In this document: positions 50,455 through 57,970 of the stretch, in pieces
Position numbering within the stretch: the first letter of the stretch is position 1
Layout: the number at the start of each line of letters is the position of its first letter
Assembly (NCBI GenBank): GCA_965140585.1
Contig: OZ223267.1
Coordinates: forward strand, 32,001-96,000
Reading direction: 5' to 3'
Source of the DNA: Spirochaetia bacterium
GTDB taxonomy: Bacteria; Spirochaetota; Spirochaetia; UBA9216
Length of the DNA stretch: 64,000 bases
Made by a program: the position numbers and the translations under genes
The notes under the pieces: generated by a model
Told to the model about the DNA's origin: nothing
What the model saw: the letters and a program-made list of their open reading frames with translations, nothing else
The model's database searches: none

Positions 50455-52503
50455 TCAGGGAGTAAAGAGCGAGCTTTTCAGCATTTTAAGAAAACTGATC
50501 CGGTTTACCGGAATTTCTGTTTCTTTCTCTGAAGGCAGTTCAAGTCCTATGAGTATATTGACCACTGGTTTGGATATATCGGTCTGTTCCAGTTTTGCAA
50601 GTCTTAATGGTTTAATCAGCTTTTTTTCAATTTCAAAATCTTTCGGTGTTGAAACCTCGAGCAGGTTGTCAAGCTCAAGTGCCCGTTCTACAAGTCTCAG
50701 TTTCCCTCTGTGATCCATGGCCCCGGCTTCACCTTTTTCCTCGGGTCTTGTTGAAGTGGTAAGCTGTGATTGATCCAGAATAAGCTTTTTCTGAATGCGG
50801 GCTTCAAGATTCTGTTTCTGGGCTGGAGCCATTTTTCGGGCTGCCAGATTTTTCATCTGTTCTTCAATTACAGCCGCGGCATCCTCACTGTGTTCAGTTT
50901 TATAGGCTTTAAATCCGGAAGACTCTTTGAGCTTGCTGAATCCTGGGCTTGGTATTGTTTCAGTGTTCTTCCCCTGACTGTGTATTCTGACATCGGGCAG
51001 CATTTCAAATCCTGCATTTATAAAAGCCCGTCTCCATTCATTTTCTCTATCAGGGTCCAGTATGAAAACGCCCGGAGCCGGTACAGAAAGAAAAAATTCC
51101 TTCAGATTCGGTGAATGCTCGATAAGCGGAAGTCTTTCTTTAGCGACAGTCAGGACTACACCATAGTTGAGATCCATGCTTCTGTACTCTTTTTCCCATG
51201 TCGAAAGCGTAAATGAAAGGTTCTGAGGTAGAGGCCGTCCTGAATATTTTTCAAGATCAGCGATTAGCTCTTCAGATGTGAAGTCAGCATTTCTGAAAGT
51301 GGAAAAGCTCGTCTTCTCAAGAATATATGTGCTCACCAGATCATATCGAATCAGTCTCGAACATAAGGCTGCTGTAAGTTCAGCTTCCATTGTGATTCCC
51401 GGCGGAACTGAAATTTCAAAATTTGGTTCAACTCTGATTACCGTGTCTTTGTATAAAGGGGGGAATTCGTTTAGGCAGTATCTGCTGCCGCAATGACTTA
51501 TGAACCCGAAACTTATCAGCGATTTTACTGCGGAAGAGACCTTAACAGAAGGCAGCGGGTTTGCCCTCCCGTATATTTTACGGCAGCTGAACATGATACC
51601 TTCAAGGATATTTTTCTTATACTGCTGTCCGGGTTCAAGCATACTGAAAAAGGAAGAGTTTAGTTCCGCTGCTGCCGCAAGTTCGCCCTGCAGGGCCTCG
51701 GTGTCCTTTAGAGTGCCTGACCCGGGTGCATGGAAAACCGCCGCGGCAGAGAGAAAAAGCTGCTGTTTTTCAAGTGTCATCCGGGCAAAGTCTTTTACAG
51801 CAGTAATATTGAGTCTCTGGTACCCTGATTCTTCCTTTAAAAAGCCGAAGGTTTTAATTGTACTGTACAGGCTGATGATTAATTCTTCTGGCGAGAGTCC
51901 GCTTTGTTTAACTGCAGCATCAAAGGTATCTTCAAATTTTTCTACTATTTTTTTTCTTGCATTGCCGTCAAGGCGGCTGATAAGAGGGTTATCCGAAACA
52001 AAGGAAAGAAAAGCCGTGATGAGCCTGGTATTGAACCACCTTTGTTCCGTTTTAATATCGGGACCAGGCTCATTAGGGAATAAAAGAGATGTATCAAGCA
52101 CCCTCTCTTTAAGTTCTTTTTGGAACAGTATATTAAGGCTGAGTTTTCGGGAACTGTGCTGCTTTTGATCTCTGTAATCAACTTCTACAAGCAGCCGCTC
52201 CTGGAGATTTGCTACACGGTTGTGAAGTTCAATGAAGCTGTAGTTTTTACCGAAAAAACTGCTTAACTCATCTATTGAAACGGGAGACAGAAGTTCGACT
52301 GCGGTTAGAATCTTTCTGTCTTCATCATCAATCAGCTTAAAAAGATTTTTCCTGACCGAAGGTCTGTTAAGCATATTTTCAAGCGAACGGAGGAGATCAT
52401 GCTTATTGAAAGGAGTTTTCAAATCACCCAGATAATTCCGCATCAGTTCAAAGAAGATGGAATCGGGAAGGGTAAGCATGTTATTCTTCCATTCGTCAGT
52501 CAA
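50455..52503 (-). CDS. XPB partner protein with Helicase_C_3 (helicase-associated) domain and WYL-like C-terminus
   Basis: 'IRVEPNFEISV...YILEKTSF....SEELIADLEKYSGRPLPQNLSFTLSTW'; overlaps the XPB stop. Confidence 0.75.
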   Translation of the reverse strand: MTDEWKNNMLTLPDSIFFELMRNYLGDLKTPFNKHDLLRSLENMLNRPSVRKNLFKLIDDEDRKILTAVELLSPVSIDELSSFFGKNYSFIELHNRVANLQERLLVEVDYRDQKQHSSRKLSLNILFQKELKERVLDTSLLFPNEPGPDIKTEQRWFNTRLITAFLSFVSDNPLISRLDGNARKKIVEKFEDTFDAAVKQSGLSPEELIISLYSTIKTFGFLKEESGYQRLNITAVKDFARMTLEKQQLFLSAAAVFHAPGSGTLKDTEALQGELAAAAELNSSFFSMLEPGQQYKKNILEGIMFSCRKIYGRANPLPSVKVSSAVKSLISFGFISHCGSRYCLNEFPPLYKDTVIRVEPNFEISVPPGITMEAELTAALCSRLIRYDLVSTYILEKTSFSTFRNADFTSEELIADLEKYSGRPLPQNLSFTLSTWEKEYRSMDLNYGVVLTVAKERLPLIEHSPNLKEFFLSVPAPGVFILDPDRENEWRRAFINAGFEMLPDVRIHSQGKNTETIPSPGFSKLKESSGFKAYKTEHSEDAAAVIEEQMKNLAARKMAPAQKQNLEARIQKKLILDQSQLTTSTRPEEKGEAGAMDHRGKLRLVERALELDNLLEVSTPKDFEIEKKLIKPLRLAKLEQTDISKPVVNILIGLELPSEKETEIPVNRISFLKMLKSSLFTP

Positions 52504-54172
52504 CTATATCATCCCATATTTCTATTGAGTATTTATAACCCTGCTCAGTGAGAAATTTCTGCCTGTTTGCTGAAAATGTTTCTTCGGTAGTGTAGTTGGA
52601 AACAATCGAATAGAAATATGAATTCCTTTCCTTCGGCCTGAGAATCCTTCCCAGGCGCTGGGCTTCCTCCTGGCGCGAACCGAAGGTTCCCGATACCTGA
52701 ATTGCTACCGAGGCATCAGGCAGATCTATTGCAAAGTTGGCTACCTTTGAAACTACTATGACGCGTTCCTCTCCTTCACGGAATTTCTGGTAGATTACCT
52801 CACGTTCACTGTTCGGTGTCTTTCCGGTGATAAGGGGAGCCTTGAGTCTTTTTGCAAGAAGATGCAGCTGGTCCAGATACTGGCCGATGACAATCACCGC
52901 ATCCTCCGGGTGGTTATCGATAAGCTGGGTTGTAATCTGAATCTTACGCGGATTTTCACTGGCTATCCTGAACTTCTGTCTTTTATCGGATGCCGCGTAT
53001 TCAATCATCATTCTTTCAGGCATATCCACCCTGATTTCACAGCAGCTTGCTTCGGCTATCCAGCCCTTTGATTCAAGCTCTTTCCAGGGTACATCAAAGC
53101 GTTTCGGTCCTATTAGTGAGAACACGTCGGATTCTCTTCCGTCTTCACGAAGCAGGGTAGCTGTAAGTCCGAGACGCCTCATGGCCTGTATTTCCGCGGT
53201 TACCCTGAATACGGGCGCCGGCAGAAGATGAACTTCGTCATATATGATCAGACCCCATCCGCCTTCAGAAAATATTCTGAAATGGGGAAACTCGCTTTCC
53301 TTATCAGGGCGCCATGTAAGAATCTGGTATGTCGCGATCGTAACCGGCTTTATTTCTTTCCTTGCTCCTGTATATTCACCGATTTCATCGGCTGTAAGTG
53401 AGGTCTTGTCCAGCAATTCTCTCATCCACTGGTGGACCGCTGCGACATTGGTTGTAATTATTAGTGTGTTTGTTCTGCACAGATCCATTGTCTTTATACC
53501 GACGATGGTTTTTCCTGAGCCGCAGGGAAGTACTATTGTGCCGAATCCGTAGCCTCTTTCTCCACCGCCGTGGAAGGCGTTTGCTGCATTGTCCTGATAG
53601 TCTCGTGTATTGAAGCTGCTGCCGGATGCGGCAATCTCCCGCAGGCTGAAGTCAAGCGGTTTACCGTCCTTGAGCGGTGCCGTATCTTTTACCGGCCATC
53701 CAAGCTTGATCAGTTCAACCTTGACTGTCCCGCGGTCGACCAGTTTTACGAGAAAGCCGTCACCCTCTCTAATCAGGTATTTTGCCAGGCCCTTTCTTGC
53801 TTCAAGTTCCGCTACTATGTAGCTGTTCTCGGCTTCAAGATAGAGAAAGTCCGGATTCTCGGTTTCCTTCAGAACGAGCTGTCCGAACCTGTCCACAGTC
53901 TGTCTGATAGTAAAACTGACATTTTCGGGAACAGAAAATTTAGACCACTTTGAAAGTCTTTTAAGAATGTTGTCTGCTGAAATTCCGGCGGATGCTGCAT
54001 TCCACAGAGACAGTGGTGATATTCTGAATGTATGAATATGTTCAGGTGACTTTTCAAGTTCGGCAAAAGCGGCAATATCGGTACGTGCCTCATCGGCAAA
54101 AGGATGATGCACATCCAGCATCAGTGAGCTGTCGCTTTGTACTATAAGAGGTGTTTTATCATCCTTTACCAT
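52496..54172 (-). CDS. Bacterial XPB/Ssl2-like SF2 DNA helicase
   Basis: PLIVQSD, AELEKSPEHIHT, LPCGSGKT, DEVHLLPA, GLTAT, SRQEEAQRLGRILRPK. Confidence 0.95.
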   Translation of the reverse strand: MVKDDKTPLIVQSDSSLMLDVHHPFADEARTDIAAFAELEKSPEHIHTFRISPLSLWNAASAGISADNILKRLSKWSKFSVPENVSFTIRQTVDRFGQLVLKETENPDFLYLEAENSYIVAELEARKGLAKYLIREGDGFLVKLVDRGTVKVELIKLGWPVKDTAPLKDGKPLDFSLREIAASGSSFNTRDYQDNAANAFHGGGERGYGFGTIVLPCGSGKTIVGIKTMDLCRTNTLIITTNVAAVHQWMRELLDKTSLTADEIGEYTGARKEIKPVTIATYQILTWRPDKESEFPHFRIFSEGGWGLIIYDEVHLLPAPVFRVTAEIQAMRRLGLTATLLREDGRESDVFSLIGPKRFDVPWKELESKGWIAEASCCEIRVDMPERMMIEYAASDKRQKFRIASENPRKIQITTQLIDNHPEDAVIVIGQYLDQLHLLAKRLKAPLITGKTPNSEREVIYQKFREGEERVIVVSKVANFAIDLPDASVAIQVSGTFGSRQEEAQRLGRILRPKERNSYFYSIVSNYTTEETFSANRQKFLTEQGYKYSIEIWDDIVD

Positions 54173-54222: not shown

Positions 54223-54951
54223 TTAAACCGGCGATGCCGATTTTCCGGCCTTGATTTTTGATGTTATTGCAGTAAATTTCAGTTCCGCATTTTTCATCTG
54301 AGGTTCTTTCATACTTCCTGATGATGTAAGCCGCTCATTGAAAAGCTTGCCGGCTTCGTTGCTTAAATTTGTATAAACCTTGCAGAGAACGGCATCTGTT
54401 TCTTCGGCAAGAAGTATAATAAGTGATTCCCAGTCAATGGCCTTAAGAAGAAAGGAGATTTCGTAGTCTTCAGCATCGAGAAGCCACTGCCCTGAAGGCG
54501 TGTGTGCGGCCTTATCAGCAGTACAAAGTTCCTTCACGTAGGCCTGATAATCAGTGTTTCTGCCTGTTTTGTAAAGTTCGAACTCATCTTCACCCAGAAA
54601 TGAAAGCAGGACTTCCTCTGTAAGACTTTGCGGGTCTCCGCGCATGATCGAAAGAATTCCTTCTTTAATCATCGTCATCTCAAGCAGCTTAGCTCCTGAT
54701 CCGCCTCTTACTGCAAGCCTGATATCAAGGATTCTTTCAATAACTGTATATTCGTAGCCTTTTCCGAGAAGGTTGATGCATTCCCGTAAAAAGAGATTGT
54801 TTATGCCTTCGGAATCCTGACTCAAAGCAAGAAGCCCGTCTGTTCTAGCCTTCTTGGACTGGTTGAGGATTTCCTTCAACAGAAATACTGATGCTTTTTT
54901 TTCTTCGGGAGTACATTTTATAAATTGACTGAATTCTGCGTTGTATACCAT
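54223..54951 (-). CDS. Soluble MotA-cytoplasmic-like + FliG C-terminal-like fusion protein
   Basis: 'SKKARTDGLLAL...FLRECINLL' and 'MIKEGILSIMRGDP...EEVLLSFL' (MotA-like); 'ISFLLKAIDWESLIILL....LCKVYTNLS..AGKLF.ERL...G.MK.....AE' (FliG_C-like); no TM; SD GGGAGG. Confidence 0.7.
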   Translation of the reverse strand: MVYNAEFSQFIKCTPEEKKASVFLLKEILNQSKKARTDGLLALSQDSEGINNLFLRECINLLGKGYEYTVIERILDIRLAVRGGSGAKLLEMTMIKEGILSIMRGDPQSLTEEVLLSFLGEDEFELYKTGRNTDYQAYVKELCTADKAAHTPSGQWLLDAEDYEISFLLKAIDWESLIILLAEETDAVLCKVYTNLSNEAGKLFNERLTSSGSMKEPQMKNAELKFTAITSKIKAGKSASPV

Positions 54952-55106
54952 TTTTTCCTCCCATCAATGGATTTAATTAATCTTTCTGAAGCTATCACGC
55001 AATGACTGTGATATCCGGGAAAAATGGTAATTTGAGATAAAATCAGTAATTAGTACTATGAAATGATTAGTAGTAGTAAGCCTGTTCTAATACTCTGCTA
55101 TGGCGG

Positions 55107-55142: not shown

Positions 55143-56645
55143 ATGCTGAAAATTCTTGCTGTTACGCAAATTTTTTTTAAATATCCCGATTATCCCGGTT
55201 TAAAAGGCAGAGAGGTTCTTGAAGATGTTTCATTGGAGGTCAGGCCCGGGGAGATTTGTGTTATTGCGGGAGGATCAGAATCCGGAAAATCAACGCTGGC
55301 AGGAATTACCGCAGGGCTTATTCCGCTTCACACAGGCGGAAAGTTAACCGGGCAGGTTTTTCTTGATGATACCGATGTTTTGAGCAGAGCCCCGGCAAAG
55401 CTTGTCGGCGAACGGGGGATTGTCTTTCAGGATCCCGAGAAGCAAATCATTACGACAGTCTGCGGCGCAGAAACTGCTTTTCCTCTGGAATCCATGGGTA
55501 TGGAGAGGTCTCTGATGCAGACTGCCGTGAAAGCGGCTCTTGAATCTGCCGGGCTTGCCGGTTATGAGCAGGTTTCCACTTCTGCGCTCTCGGGCGGAGA
55601 GAAGAAAAAACTGGGGCTTGCCGGGCTGTTTGCAGTAAGCCCCGGTCTCTGGATTCTTGATGAGACTATTGAGGAGCTTGATAAACCCACCCGGCACCGG
55701 ATAATGAAAAGCCTGCGCGATTCGGGAGCTGCAGTAATACTTTTTACCTCCAAGTTTCTTGAAACCTTCGATGAATACGCTGATTCGCTGTATATCCTTA
55801 AGGACCGCCGTATTTCGGTAAAGCACCGGCTTCCTGCTTCGTCTGAGCTGAAGGAACTGCTACAGGATAATGATCTTCTATATAAAGCGGTTATTCAGGA
55901 AAAGTTATCATCTGACAAAAGTGCAGCAGAATCTGCAGAAAAACTGAGTCTGCCGGTAATAGAAGCGTCAAATATCGGCTATCAATATCCTAACGCCGAT
56001 TTTGCGGTTTCTAATATAGATCTAAAACTAACTGAAGGTGAGGTGCTTGCGCTGGCCGGCAGAAACGGCTGCGGAAAGAGCACTCTGGCCAGAGTGCTCT
56101 GCGGGCTGCTTGAGCCGGGGCAGGGGACAATAAAAATTGATGCTGAAACTGCAGATTCCAGGCTTCTGAATCGTTGTGTTGCCTATATGTTTCAGAATCC
56201 TGATTATCAGATTTTTCTGCCAACGGTTGAGCAGGAGCTTTCATGGGGACTCAGAGCGGCCGGATTTTCGTCTGCGGAAATCCATGAGAAGGTCAATGAG
56301 GCTGCAGACCTGTTCAAGCTTCCTGCCATGGAGACTCCACCTGCGATGATGAGCTTCAGCGCCCGTAAACGCCTTCAAGCCGCTGTGTATTATCTGCTGA
56401 AGCGACGGGTTTTTATACTCGATGAAGCTGATACCGGACTTTCTTTCCGGGAGTTTACAAGCCTTCTAGAGCTCCTAAAAAAAGAATGCGGCGGGGTAAT
56501 TCTGATTACCCACAATATTGAAGTAATTCCTGATACCTGTAACAGAGTTATCTGTATGGCTAAGGGAAGAATATCCTGTGAATTTGGAAAACCGGAACTT
56601 TCAGCTATATCTGAATGGTTCAGCGAAAGCGGCGGTAAGAAATGA
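55143..56645 (+). CDS. ECF transporter duplicated ATPase (A-A' fusion)
   Basis: GGSESGKST, FQDPEKQ, LSGGEKKK; GRNGCGKST, FQNPDYQ, degenerate signature MSFSARKR. Confidence 0.9.
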   Translation: MLKILAVTQIFFKYPDYPGLKGREVLEDVSLEVRPGEICVIAGGSESGKSTLAGITAGLIPLHTGGKLTGQVFLDDTDVLSRAPAKLVGERGIVFQDPEKQIITTVCGAETAFPLESMGMERSLMQTAVKAALESAGLAGYEQVSTSALSGGEKKKLGLAGLFAVSPGLWILDETIEELDKPTRHRIMKSLRDSGAAVILFTSKFLETFDEYADSLYILKDRRISVKHRLPASSELKELLQDNDLLYKAVIQEKLSSDKSAAESAEKLSLPVIEASNIGYQYPNADFAVSNIDLKLTEGEVLALAGRNGCGKSTLARVLCGLLEPGQGTIKIDAETADSRLLNRCVAYMFQNPDYQIFLPTVEQELSWGLRAAGFSSAEIHEKVNEAADLFKLPAMETPPAMMSFSARKRLQAAVYYLLKRRVFILDEADTGLSFREFTSLLELLKKECGGVILITHNIEVIPDTCNRVICMAKGRISCEFGKPELSAISEWFSESGGKK

Positions 56646-57430
56646 TAGCAGATAATTATCTGGAGCGGGACAGTCTCCTGCACCGTTTTGATCCCAGACT
56701 GAAACTGCTGCTGACTCTTGCCTCTGTTGCATTTTTCTTTGCAGAGAAGAATGTTCTTATTCAGGGCGGATTTTTTCTGCTGATTTTTCTGATTTCAGTA
56801 ATCACCGCCGGCTTAAGAAACTCATTTCACCCGCTGAAGCTGATTTTTCCTATTCTGCTTCTAACCGCTTTTCTTACACCTGCATTTCATCGAACTGGCG
56901 AGGCCGTTATTACTGTCGGTAATACAGCTGTCCTTACAGCGGACGGAATGATTCTGGCAGTCTCTCTCCTGCTCAGGTTTTCCGGCATAACAACAATTTT
57001 CTATGTCTTTTTCAGTTCTACCAGGACTATGGATTTTATACTTGCCCTTGGATTTTTCGGTCTGCCGCATAAGGCTGCGCTTACTACGGAAATTTCATTG
57101 AGGTTTATTCCATATATGTTCAGGATTCACTCCAATATCAATGATGCTCATAAACTGCGCAGGGCAGGACTAAGTTCTTCTGAAAAAGAGAAAAGCTTTT
57201 TAGGATTTCTGCACCGGCTGAGAAATATGTTTCCTGTTCTTACCTCCGTCCTTATTCAGGCTGTAAAGAGCATCCCCTCACTTTCAATGGCTCTTGATTC
57301 GAAAGGCTTCGGTATAAGTGCCGGGCGTACAAGTTACCGGGCGCTGCCATTGATGAAAAAAGCTGCCGGACAGATACTAATTACGCTTCTTTTTATTGCC
57401 GCTCTTGTCATCATTCTTGTCATTGTTTAA
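56642..57430 (+). CDS. ECF transporter T component
   Basis: LHRFDPRLK, SLRFIP, AHKLR, ALDSKGF. Confidence 0.9.
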   Translation: MIADNYLERDSLLHRFDPRLKLLLTLASVAFFFAEKNVLIQGGFFLLIFLISVITAGLRNSFHPLKLIFPILLLTAFLTPAFHRTGEAVITVGNTAVLTADGMILAVSLLLRFSGITTIFYVFFSSTRTMDFILALGFFGLPHKAALTTEISLRFIPYMFRIHSNINDAHKLRRAGLSSSEKEKSFLGFLHRLRNMFPVLTSVLIQAVKSIPSLSMALDSKGFGISAGRTSYRALPLMKKAAGQILITLLFIAALVIILVIV

Positions 57431-57439
57431 TATTCCTGC

Positions 57440-57970
57440 ATGAATGATAAAGCACATAAAAGTGGATTTACATCAGGCAGGATTGCTGCTGTTGCTGTAA
57501 TGACAGCTGTTACCATGGTATTTACTTATATAGTCAGGGTTCCTGTAGCGCCGACAAGGGGATACATAAACCTCGGAGATGTAGCTGTAATGTTCACAGC
57601 CTTTACTTTTGGCCCCCTGACGGCACTGATATCAGGAGGGCTTGGTCCTGCTATTGCTGATATAGTATCGGGTTACGCGCAGTGGGCCCCCCTGACTTTT
57701 GTAGCACACGGACTTCAGGGCCTGGCTGCCGCTCTTATTTTCAGAGCAGTGAAGAAGGAAATTTTTGGGGTTATTCTTGGAGGCCTGTCCGGAATGATTA
57801 TAATGGCCGGACTGTATCTGGTGGGCGGCGGTTTTATGGTTGGCTTTGAAGCGGCGGCTGTTGAAGCACCGATGAACCTTCTCCAGAGCGGTGTGGGGCT
57901 TGTCGGCGGATTTGTTCTGTCAAAGGCCGTCCGCAAAGCATATCCTCCGGTATCCCGACTGGCCTGGTAA
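57440..57970 (+). CDS. ECF transporter S component (HmpT/PdxU-like)
   Basis: RVPVAPTRGYINLGD, GLGPAIADIVSGYAQWAPLTFVAHGLQG. Confidence 0.88.
   Translation: MNDKAHKSGFTSGRIAAVAVMTAVTMVFTYIVRVPVAPTRGYINLGDVAVMFTAFTFGPLTALISGGLGPAIADIVSGYAQWAPLTFVAHGLQGLAAALIFRAVKKEIFGVILGGLSGMIIMAGLYLVGGGFMVGFEAAAVEAPMNLLQSGVGLVGGFVLSKAVRKAYPPVSRLAW

Follow-up and report, generated by a model that had tools for sequence, protein, structure and literature searches.

A soluble protein joining the cytoplasmic head of MotA to the torque-bearing domain of FliG in two genera of Spirochaetia

The contact between MotA and FliG turns ion flow into torque, and its two faces normally belong to separate assemblies, a membrane complex and a large rotor ring. 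In a 64,000-nucleotide stretch of DNA from a Spirochaetia bacterium (assembly GCA_965140585.1, contig OZ223267.1, positions 32,001 to 96,000; the whole stretch is called the window here), we find a gene on the minus strand at 54223..54951 whose product carries both faces in one soluble chain of 242 amino acids (aa). Its N-terminal domain is the complete cytoplasmic head of MotA minus the hairpin formed by transmembrane helices TM3 and TM4, and its C-terminal domain is the helical bundle of FliG that bears the torque helix. This domain identity is near certain, and the protein is conserved, unusual and built from known flagellar parts. It belongs to a family of soluble MotA-head proteins for which we found no published description. 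The reading that we favour, with a probability of roughly 0.4, is that the window protein may serve as an interface module that associates with itself and is kept apart from the canonical motor, rather than as a simple clutch or brake. The gene and its parts are as follows.

54223..54951, minus strand: whole gene, soluble fusion of a MotA head and a FliG torque domain, 242 aa, without a transmembrane segment (open reading frame, relatives, AlphaFold2 model).
54957..54962, minus strand: ribosome-binding site GGGAGG, 5 nt ahead of the ATG, read directly from the sequence.
54913..54951, minus strand: aa 1-13, family-specific N-terminal segment with a short helix at aa 5-10, without a MotA counterpart.
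54592..54912, minus strand: aa 14-120, MotA cytoplasmic torque-generating domain without the TM3-TM4 hairpin (phmmer, VIA-align, family N-profile).
54499..54591, minus strand: aa 121-151, long linker helix (aa 121-143, 23 residues) and loop (DSSP on the AlphaFold2 model).
54232..54498, minus strand: aa 152-240, FliG C-terminal helical bundle, including the torque helix LSNEAGKLFNER at aa 196-207 (Pfam FliG_C, VIA-align).

The reading frame is open from the ATG at 54951 to the stop codon at 54223-54225. A phmmer search of 177,635 PDB sequences returned a MotA chain, 9lu9_A, as the best match (whole-sequence E 2.4e-7), and the alignment falls into two stretches, with aa 24-81 on MotA 77-134 and aa 75-119 on MotA 201-245. 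The match starts past TM2 and skips MotA 135-200, the region of TM3 and TM4, such that the loop half of the head (about aa 14-81) is joined straight onto the C-tail half (about aa 85-120). Six NCBIfam models of MotA, PomA or MotP match aa 10-81 (best E 3.9e-9), all far under their full-length cut-offs, as a fragment should be, and the N-terminal half matches no Pfam family at E up to 1. When a genuine MotA (P0129) is aligned to the profile of the family N-domain, profile positions 17-91 correspond to MotA 72-146 and positions 86-124 to MotA 214-252. The motif KAR..GLLAL is retained in the window protein together with its conserved Arg.

The structural comparisons give the same picture. The top Foldseek matches in the PDB are exclusively FliG and MotA chains. 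In VIA-align, aa 14-120 superpose on residues 68-246 of MotA or PomA (Z 15.5 for 8brd_D and Z 14.6 for 8ucs_C), and the comparison with 9luc_B gives Z 15.4 with a root-mean-square deviation (rmsd) of 2.2 Å over 105 residues at 30% identity. Over aa 14-128, six solved MotA/PomA entries score between Z 14.2 and 15.5, and the nearest unrelated fold is TolQ at a Z of about 5. Because the domain is far nearer to MotA than to TolQ, and because the ends of the missing hairpin meet at the cytoplasmic face, we infer that the soluble head was derived from flagellar MotA through loss of the membrane helices. The first 13 residues lie outside this match, since both the structure and the sequence alignments to MotA start only at aa 14-24; Y3, F7, K12 and C13 within them are invariant across the clade of the window protein. 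The linker at aa 121-151 falls outside the MotA and the FliG structural alignments alike.

For the C-terminal domain, Pfam FliG_C matches aa 157-233 (E 2.5e-6, 28.1 bits against a cut-off of 23.3), NCBIfam TIGR00207 (FliG) matches aa 159-233, and the FliG chain 3hjl_A is found in the PDB sequence search with aa 161-232 on FliG 247-318 (E 0.0039). By VIA-align, aa 152-238/240 superpose on FliG 235-332 with Z between 13.4 and 14.1, the highest value being that for Helicobacter pylori FliG 247-332 (3usw), at an rmsd of 1.6 Å over 86 residues. The preliminary description of this gene, made from the sequence alone, had read it as the MotA loop and C-tail joined without the intervening membrane helices and followed by FliG_C, and had proposed a structure comparison of each half as a check; the alignments above bear out both assignments, and the comparison places MotA and FliG chains on top for the respective halves (Z 15.4 and 14.1).

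The protein differs from both of its parent families in ways that restrict what it could do. It shares the head with MotA/PomA (PF01618; 9LU9/9LUC, 8UCS, 8BRD, 6YKM, 8GQY; 23-30% identity, rmsd 1.6-2.6 Å over 103-108 residues) but, unlike these proteins, it has no transmembrane helix, with TM1-2 dropped and TM3-4 excised, and therefore neither an ion channel nor a MotB site. It also differs from them in its extra N-terminal segment, in the fused FliG domain and in a change of the conserved Glu to Ser or Gly. Among the features that define MotA, the fold of the torque domain is thus present, and the ring of four-helix subunits and the intact pair of Arg and Glu/Asp are not. With FliG (PF01706; 3USW, 1QC7, 3HJL, 8UMD) it shares the C-terminal bundle bearing the torque helix, yet neither the N and M domains of FliG nor the ARM_C part ahead of the bundle is present, so that a region for binding FliF or FliM is missing as well; no Pfam match to FliG_N or FliG_M was found in the window protein at E up to 1. 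Its torque helix differs from that of FliG in carrying Glu in place of Arg, and Arg in place of the second acidic residue, so that of the FliG features it has the bundle with its torque helix and lacks the N and M domains and the charge pattern.

No membrane-spanning hydrophobic segment was detected in the window protein by a Kyte-Doolittle scan, whose maximum 19-residue mean is 1.39 compared to 2.1 in the host MotA, or in the AlphaFold2 model, which is globular and helical. This model, built with 58 family sequences, has a predicted local distance difference test score (pLDDT) of 92.6 and a predicted template modelling score (pTM) of 0.81; the sequence modelled was that of the cluster representative (P0001), which departs from the window protein at a single residue, aa 150 (R in P0001, H in the window protein). 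A search of 5.8 billion clustered proteins yielded ten relatives of 242-259 aa with 49-54% identity. Selection is indicated by a set of 11 sequences that are 48-54% identical to the first, share a mean column identity of 68% and have many invariant columns.

The host is represented by a metagenome-assembled genome of 4.85 Mb (98.5% complete) that encodes a single flagellar MotA alongside three FliG paralogs of full length. Among the 23,307 six-frame open reading frames of this genome, the profile of the family N-domain matches only the window gene and the host MotA (E 4.1e-29). The window gene itself matches the N-profile (E 7.5e-42) and then the C-profile (E 4.6e-24), a result that is partly circular, as the profiles (aa 1-128 and 148-238) include its own clade. 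The window gene is thus the sole soluble fusion of a MotA head and FliG in its genome.

Beyond these ten relatives, 1.84 billion cluster representatives were searched exhaustively without a profile, which revealed a family of 358 representatives at E up to 0.001. We scanned the best 150 of these with Pfam and scored 161 proteins with the N- and C-profiles. The order N then C is found in 102 of the 161, and a further 42 (123-250 aa) consist of the N-domain alone. Four proteins have two N matches, one of them being a genuine MotA with loop and tail on either side of the hairpin. Tandem arrangements also occur (two N4-C, one N3-C and three N2-C), and five proteins carry five complete N-domains (three N5-C2, one N5-C and one N5), a number that we liken to the five copies of MotA in the stator; none of the 161 has more than five. 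In the five-repeat proteins (P0015, P0041, P0132, P0043, P0035), each repeat keeps FSEKAR.EGLLALE, and most end in one or two canonical FliG_C domains. An AlphaFold2 model of one of them (894 aa, 8 sequences; pLDDT 77.4, pTM 0.60) is compatible with a defined multi-domain body. As the family shows, the flagellar-specific head of MotA can fold without its membrane part.

The members of the family are varied in their fusions. Among the 150 scanned, an AraC-type helix-turn-helix (HTH) domain stands N-terminal to both domains in 10; HicB is fused in two, one of which also has Trans_reg_C; tetratricopeptide repeats (TPR) and leucine-rich repeats (LRR) occur in two each, and Sel1 and a receiver domain (REC) in one each. 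Several also carry FliG_M. Few members are labelled taxonomically; the commonest phylum among them is Bacillota, and for the cluster of N-only size it is Spirochaetota, such that the family has been seen only in Spirochaetota and, from the few labelled members, in Bacillota. We note that 300 of 301 sampled Spirochaetota genomes match the two-domain profile, nearly all through ordinary FliG, which makes this count uninformative on the family, and five genomes with low matches that we checked singly have a divergent FliG only, or nothing.

Leptospira-like genomes encode a two-domain member that matches the family profile across both domains (E 1e-35 to 1e-40). This member corresponds to the LIC10244 family (NF047717), which is of the same length class, but the window protein lies outside it, with 17.1 bits against a cut-off of 475 (E 0.0028) and a match restricted to the N-domain. 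NF047717 takes its name solely from PerRA/PerRB-dependent expression. A literature search, which did not cover supplements, found no functional or structural description of a soluble MotA-head protein or of a fusion with FliG_C, in agreement with the preliminary description, whose author had known of none. In the available text of two Leptospira transcriptome studies, LIC10244-type genes occur solely as rows of expression tables labelled "hypothetical protein" or "fliG paralog" (PMC8638967, PMC13066512), meaning that Leptospira genes of this kind have already been flagged in the context of host adaptation. Puente-Lelievre et al. (mBio 2025, PMC12505986) have defined the torque-generating interface of MotA as a trait of membrane stators that is specific to flagella, and the N-domain described here corresponds to that interface plus the MotA C-terminal domain; the accessible portion of that paper treats the interface in membrane stators only and mentions no soluble homologue.

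On the plasmid pTS2 of Treponema saccharophilum (179610-189942, L060), we observed three complete N-only paralogs (178-285 aa) and one fragment. They lie in a run of small hypothetical genes with two LRR-domain proteins flanking, and no FliG_C-like gene was detected in this cluster.

The clade to which the window protein belongs is much narrower than the family. Counting the window's genome, orthologs are present in 8 of 41 relatives searched, all from two genera of a single family, and the frame is intact and free of internal stops in all eight. With the window protein as query, the search found no ortholog in three other genera of the same family, whose genomes are 81, 86 and 97% complete, and none in any of 30 further families belonging to the class. 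In the tree of N-domains this clade is monophyletic (support 1.0) and sits on a long branch; the MotA rows in that tree were aligned over the loop half only and the rooting is arbitrary, hence it has no bearing on origin. We regard the clade as a fast-evolving branch, confined to two genera, of a larger family, and so narrow and divergent a copy tempers what the window alone can establish.

In MotA, an Arg and, eight residues further along, a Glu pair with the Arg and the Asp-Asp of the FliG torque helix (E. coli numbering). In the Borrelia stator, Arg89 and Asp97 of MotA are the conserved residues that interact with the C-ring, according to the available part of a preprint (10.64898/2026.10.14.759253). 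To assess these positions we compared the window's clade (n = 12) with the other two-domain representatives (n = 90).

Position 36 (MotA Arg): Arg in 77/90; in the clade, R in 11 and K in 1.
Position 44 (MotA Glu): Glu/Asp in 80/90; in the clade, G in 10, S in 1 and A in 1.
Position 199 (FliG Arg): Arg/Lys in 62/90; in the clade, E in 8 and D in 4.
Position 206 (FliG first acidic residue): Glu/Asp in 68/90; in the clade, E in 11 and D in 1.
Position 207 (FliG second acidic residue): Asp/Glu in 60/90; in the clade, R in 10, K in 1 and Q in 1.

Both sides of the torque interface are thus retained in the family at large, and the altered charges represent a recoding, specific to this clade, of both domains of an otherwise canonical family. 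The window protein itself has R36, S44 (eight residues on), E199, E206 and R207, in accordance with the earlier statement that the MotA Arg is kept, that the Glu is replaced by Ser and that the FliG helix (LSNEAGKLFNER) is altered. Further reversals in the clade affect the N-domain (E to K at position 33, K to D at 57, and R/K to E at 72 and 112) and the C-domain (K202, R205, and R to D/E at 215). The host MotA is canonical (KARRDGLLALED), and so is the main host FliG, FliG_a (MSKRASQLLKEE), with R, E and E at the torque-helix positions.

A separate observation concerns the third FliG paralog of the host (379-381 aa; G000:C6:113461-114603, L003:694-1833). Its torque helix reads DFSTEEQHLMIQK, with Glu at the conserved Arg and Lys at the second Asp, which is the same reversal of polarity as in the window protein. 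The host that carries this reversed paralog has one MotA only, and this is canonical.

To assess self-association, four copies of aa 1-132 were submitted to complex prediction together with three controls. The interaction prediction score from aligned errors (ipSAE) was 0.74 (runs 0.88, 0.74 and 0.66) compared to 0.00 for the best control, and the runs had at least 92% of their contacts in common, with a partner pLDDT of at least 82. In a calibration that applies roughly to this case, 20 of 30 proteins solved as same-chain pairs attained this mark, compared to 1 of the 23 whose structures are of single chains. The predicted interface is head-to-tail, with residues 66-89 of one copy against residues 97-121 and 1-11 of its neighbour, and both faces are engaged in one of the copies, as a ring or an arc needs. 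These results suggest that the MotA-like domains bind one another head-to-tail, in the manner of the MotA5 base.

With regard to its surroundings, the window gene is followed on the same strand by a pair of genes that includes an XPB-type helicase, and a transporter module of the energy-coupling factor (ECF) type lies divergently upstream.

52496..54172, minus strand: XPB-type DNA repair helicase, the downstream neighbour (NCBIfam NF045503, E 1.2e-254, 846 bits against a cut-off of 610).
50455..52503, minus strand: 682-aa partner of XPB, with an 8-nt overlap between its start and the XPB stop (Helicase_C_3, E 1.5e-6, sub-threshold).
55143-57970, plus strand: ECF-type transporter module, with a double ATPase fusion, a CbiQ/EcfT component and a riboflavin-type S component.

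The ECF module is syntenic in six of seven further ortholog loci, the exception being L013; metabolic genes follow the XPB pair, and a shikimate dehydrogenase gene is among the neighbours. The main fliG and motA of the host (C4:285665-294494) are on the same contig as the window gene (C4:86226-86963) at a distance of about 200 kb, which confirms that the gene stands outside any flagellar operon. Only 50 nt separate the window gene from XPB; no terminator-like site was found in this gap, and the promoter and terminator scans stayed at chance level. XPB lies 3' of the gene in all seven ortholog loci with downstream DNA (the window's genome, L013-L016, L058, which is partial, and L059), and L057 was left out of this count as its sequence ends too early. 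XPB and its 682-aa partner occur together in every locus checked (XPB 65-80% identical, partner 26-43%). In three of three relatives examined, however, this pair (XPB 65-68% identical) occurs with no gene for the N- or C-domain, and one of the three belongs to the same family and has XPB adjoining the same ECF ATPase gene. Because of the spread over two genera and the intact XPB pair elsewhere without the gene, the window gene is a lineage-specific insertion beside XPB and not its partner, and we rejected a partnership on the ground that the pair is intact in its absence.

The loci of more distant members point in various directions. Ten were surveyed in other Spirochaetota; none has XPB nearby, a gene for a methyl-accepting chemotaxis protein (MCP) is found within two genes in two of them and a FliM paralog in one, and they are otherwise unalike. 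The FliM paralog (L049:5702-6784, G119; PF02154, E 2.4e-53) is two genes from a two-domain member and stands beside an AAA ATPase gene and WYL/HTH genes.

If these observations are taken together, the mechanism that we favour would work as follows. The MotA-like domains would bind one another head-to-tail, like the cytoplasmic bases in the MotA5 ring, and each would carry a FliG-like domain that the two-domain model (pTM 0.81) predicts to be fixed against it. This combination would make a soluble, self-contained copy of the stator-rotor contact. Across the family, where the faces keep the canonical torque charges, such a copy could for that reason also engage the real motor. In the window's clade, reciprocal charge swaps may have kept a private interface between the N- and C-domains and insulated it from the unchanged host MotA and main FliG, such that the window protein would be a scaffold or interaction module that associates with itself and probably retains a link to motility control, and not a straightforward competitor for the canonical contact. 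Several points weigh against this. We saw no co-variation of positions 44 and 199 outside the clade, and the recoding is a single lineage event, which leaves the co-variation without statistical support. With R36 and E206 retained, some canonical pairing with the motor is possible. The oligomer score may reflect the model's memory of solved MotA pentamers, which are 25-30% identical; the best of the four-copy runs has one copy barely touching the others; the prediction involved four copies and not five, and thus bears on no pentamer; and the pTM of 0.60 for the five-repeat protein, a modelled value, is no more than moderate.

The most direct alternative is a decoy of the motor, in which the MotA-like domain occupies FliG in the C-ring, the FliG-like domain caps the MotA5B2 stator, or both, to disengage or lock the motor. 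The preliminary description had pointed in this direction with a mimic of the rotor/stator interface that acts as a clutch, a brake or an assembly chaperone. The two halves represent the opposing faces of the torque interface, the family as a whole retains the torque charges in both domains, one relative is fused to the FapA beta-solenoid, a masker of the MotA base in the part of the preprint available (10.64898/2026.10.14.759253), and MCP and FliM genes stand near distant members in 2 and 1 of 10 loci; R36 and E206 remain in the clade as well. For the window copy, however, G/S44, E199 and R207 would leave the canonical pairs with host MotA and FliG_a neutral or repulsive, a place in the C-ring would require the N and M domains of FliG, which are missing here, and every spirochaete searched has a FliG-type match while most of them lack the gene, so that it is no general part of the motor. 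We hold this reading to be a doubtful though real possibility, better supported for relatives with canonical charges than for the window copy. For the family, the idea of an interface mimic is strengthened by the torque charges, the FapA fusion and the five-copy forms, and motor action is weakened for the clade by the recoding of both domains relative to host MotA and FliG_a, by its restriction to two genera and by the DNA-binding and repeat fusions among relatives; the fallback of a repurposed module, also offered then, fits the window copy at least as well as a motor clutch, brake or chaperone. Those same fusions (AraC-type HTH in 10 of 150, HicB in two and a receiver in one, with TPR, LRR and Sel1), together with the cluster of at least three N-only paralogs on pTS2 with its flanking LRR proteins and the otherwise mutually unrelated neighbourhoods of the ten distant members, would suit a generic regulatory or partner-switch module unrelated to torque, a protein-binding sensor that here acts as a lone adaptor. 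We consider this unlikely, as it leaves unexplained the conservation of the exact MotA and FliG torque residues across the family, and the maximum of five tandem copies, and as the family has been seen only in Spirochaetota and, from few labelled members, Bacillota. An accessory role in the XPB operon, in DNA repair or transcription, is disfavoured and seems very improbable to us: the gap of 50 nt on the same strand without a terminator-like site and the position of XPB in 7/7 loci speak for it, and against it stand the pair without the gene in 3/3 relatives, the absence of XPB from the ten distant loci, and the fact that all orthologs come from two genera with the whole block syntenic. We give least credence of all to a decaying, functionless remnant of a MotA/FliG rearrangement. 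The restriction to one lineage, the long branch and the lost torque charges would fit decay, but the frame is intact in 8/8 genomes, the ribosome-binding site is strong, columns are invariant at about 50% identity and the fold is predicted with very high confidence.

YcgR and EpsE are protein regulators of stator-rotor engagement. By analogy with these and with FapA of Borrelia, the window protein may act by occupying one side of the MotA-FliG interface, although it has no kinship in sequence or fold to any of the three, and FapA differs from the window protein in that its binding to the motor is documented. The beta-solenoid of FapA binds and masks the MotA base in Borrelia, as stated in the available part of the preprint (10.64898/2026.10.14.759253), and this makes a fusion of the MotA head to such a solenoid notable. 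This fusion is P0112 (299 aa; PF03961, E 1.5e-11), the only one among the 150 scanned.

A bolder extension, which we advance as speculative and rather improbable, is that the proteins are dummy stators. Five heads, as subunits or as repeats, might form a soluble replica of the MotA5 base that docks on FliG in the C-ring while the FliG-like domains cap stators, and the recoded copy of the host might be an orthogonal pair, with the third FliG paralog as a possible partner, since in its torque helix, too, Glu occupies the Arg position and Lys the Asp position, with the polarity thus reversed in the same way. If this were true, the family would be a new and widespread class of flagellar clutch or brake made from the motor's own parts. 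Independently of that, a soluble single-chain version of both faces offers a small and tractable model for work on structure, binding and charge swaps, to which the relatives add the five-fold tandem forms and the fusion to a known stator-masking domain. The window's clade is a natural experiment in which the torque charges are recoded on both sides at once, and the family as a whole suggests that spirochaetes and Bacillota possess a so far unstudied layer of proteins associated with the motor or derived from it.

Finally, a role in defence seems less likely: the window gene has no PADLOC match at E up to 0.01, the 682-aa protein has none either, XPB gives partial helicase matches only, and no Zorya chain is among the structural matches listed for the window protein. 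The window protein matches no PHROG, and phrog_21194 matches two relatives weakly; a tblastn search of phage records with an N-only relative returned two unannotated Listeria "phage" fragments at 47% query cover, which are uninformative. Among the XPB matches themselves, one from a genome of the same family (L067; G305:C2:147404-149068) contains a single in-frame TGA, which may be a sequencing error, a pseudogene or recoding.

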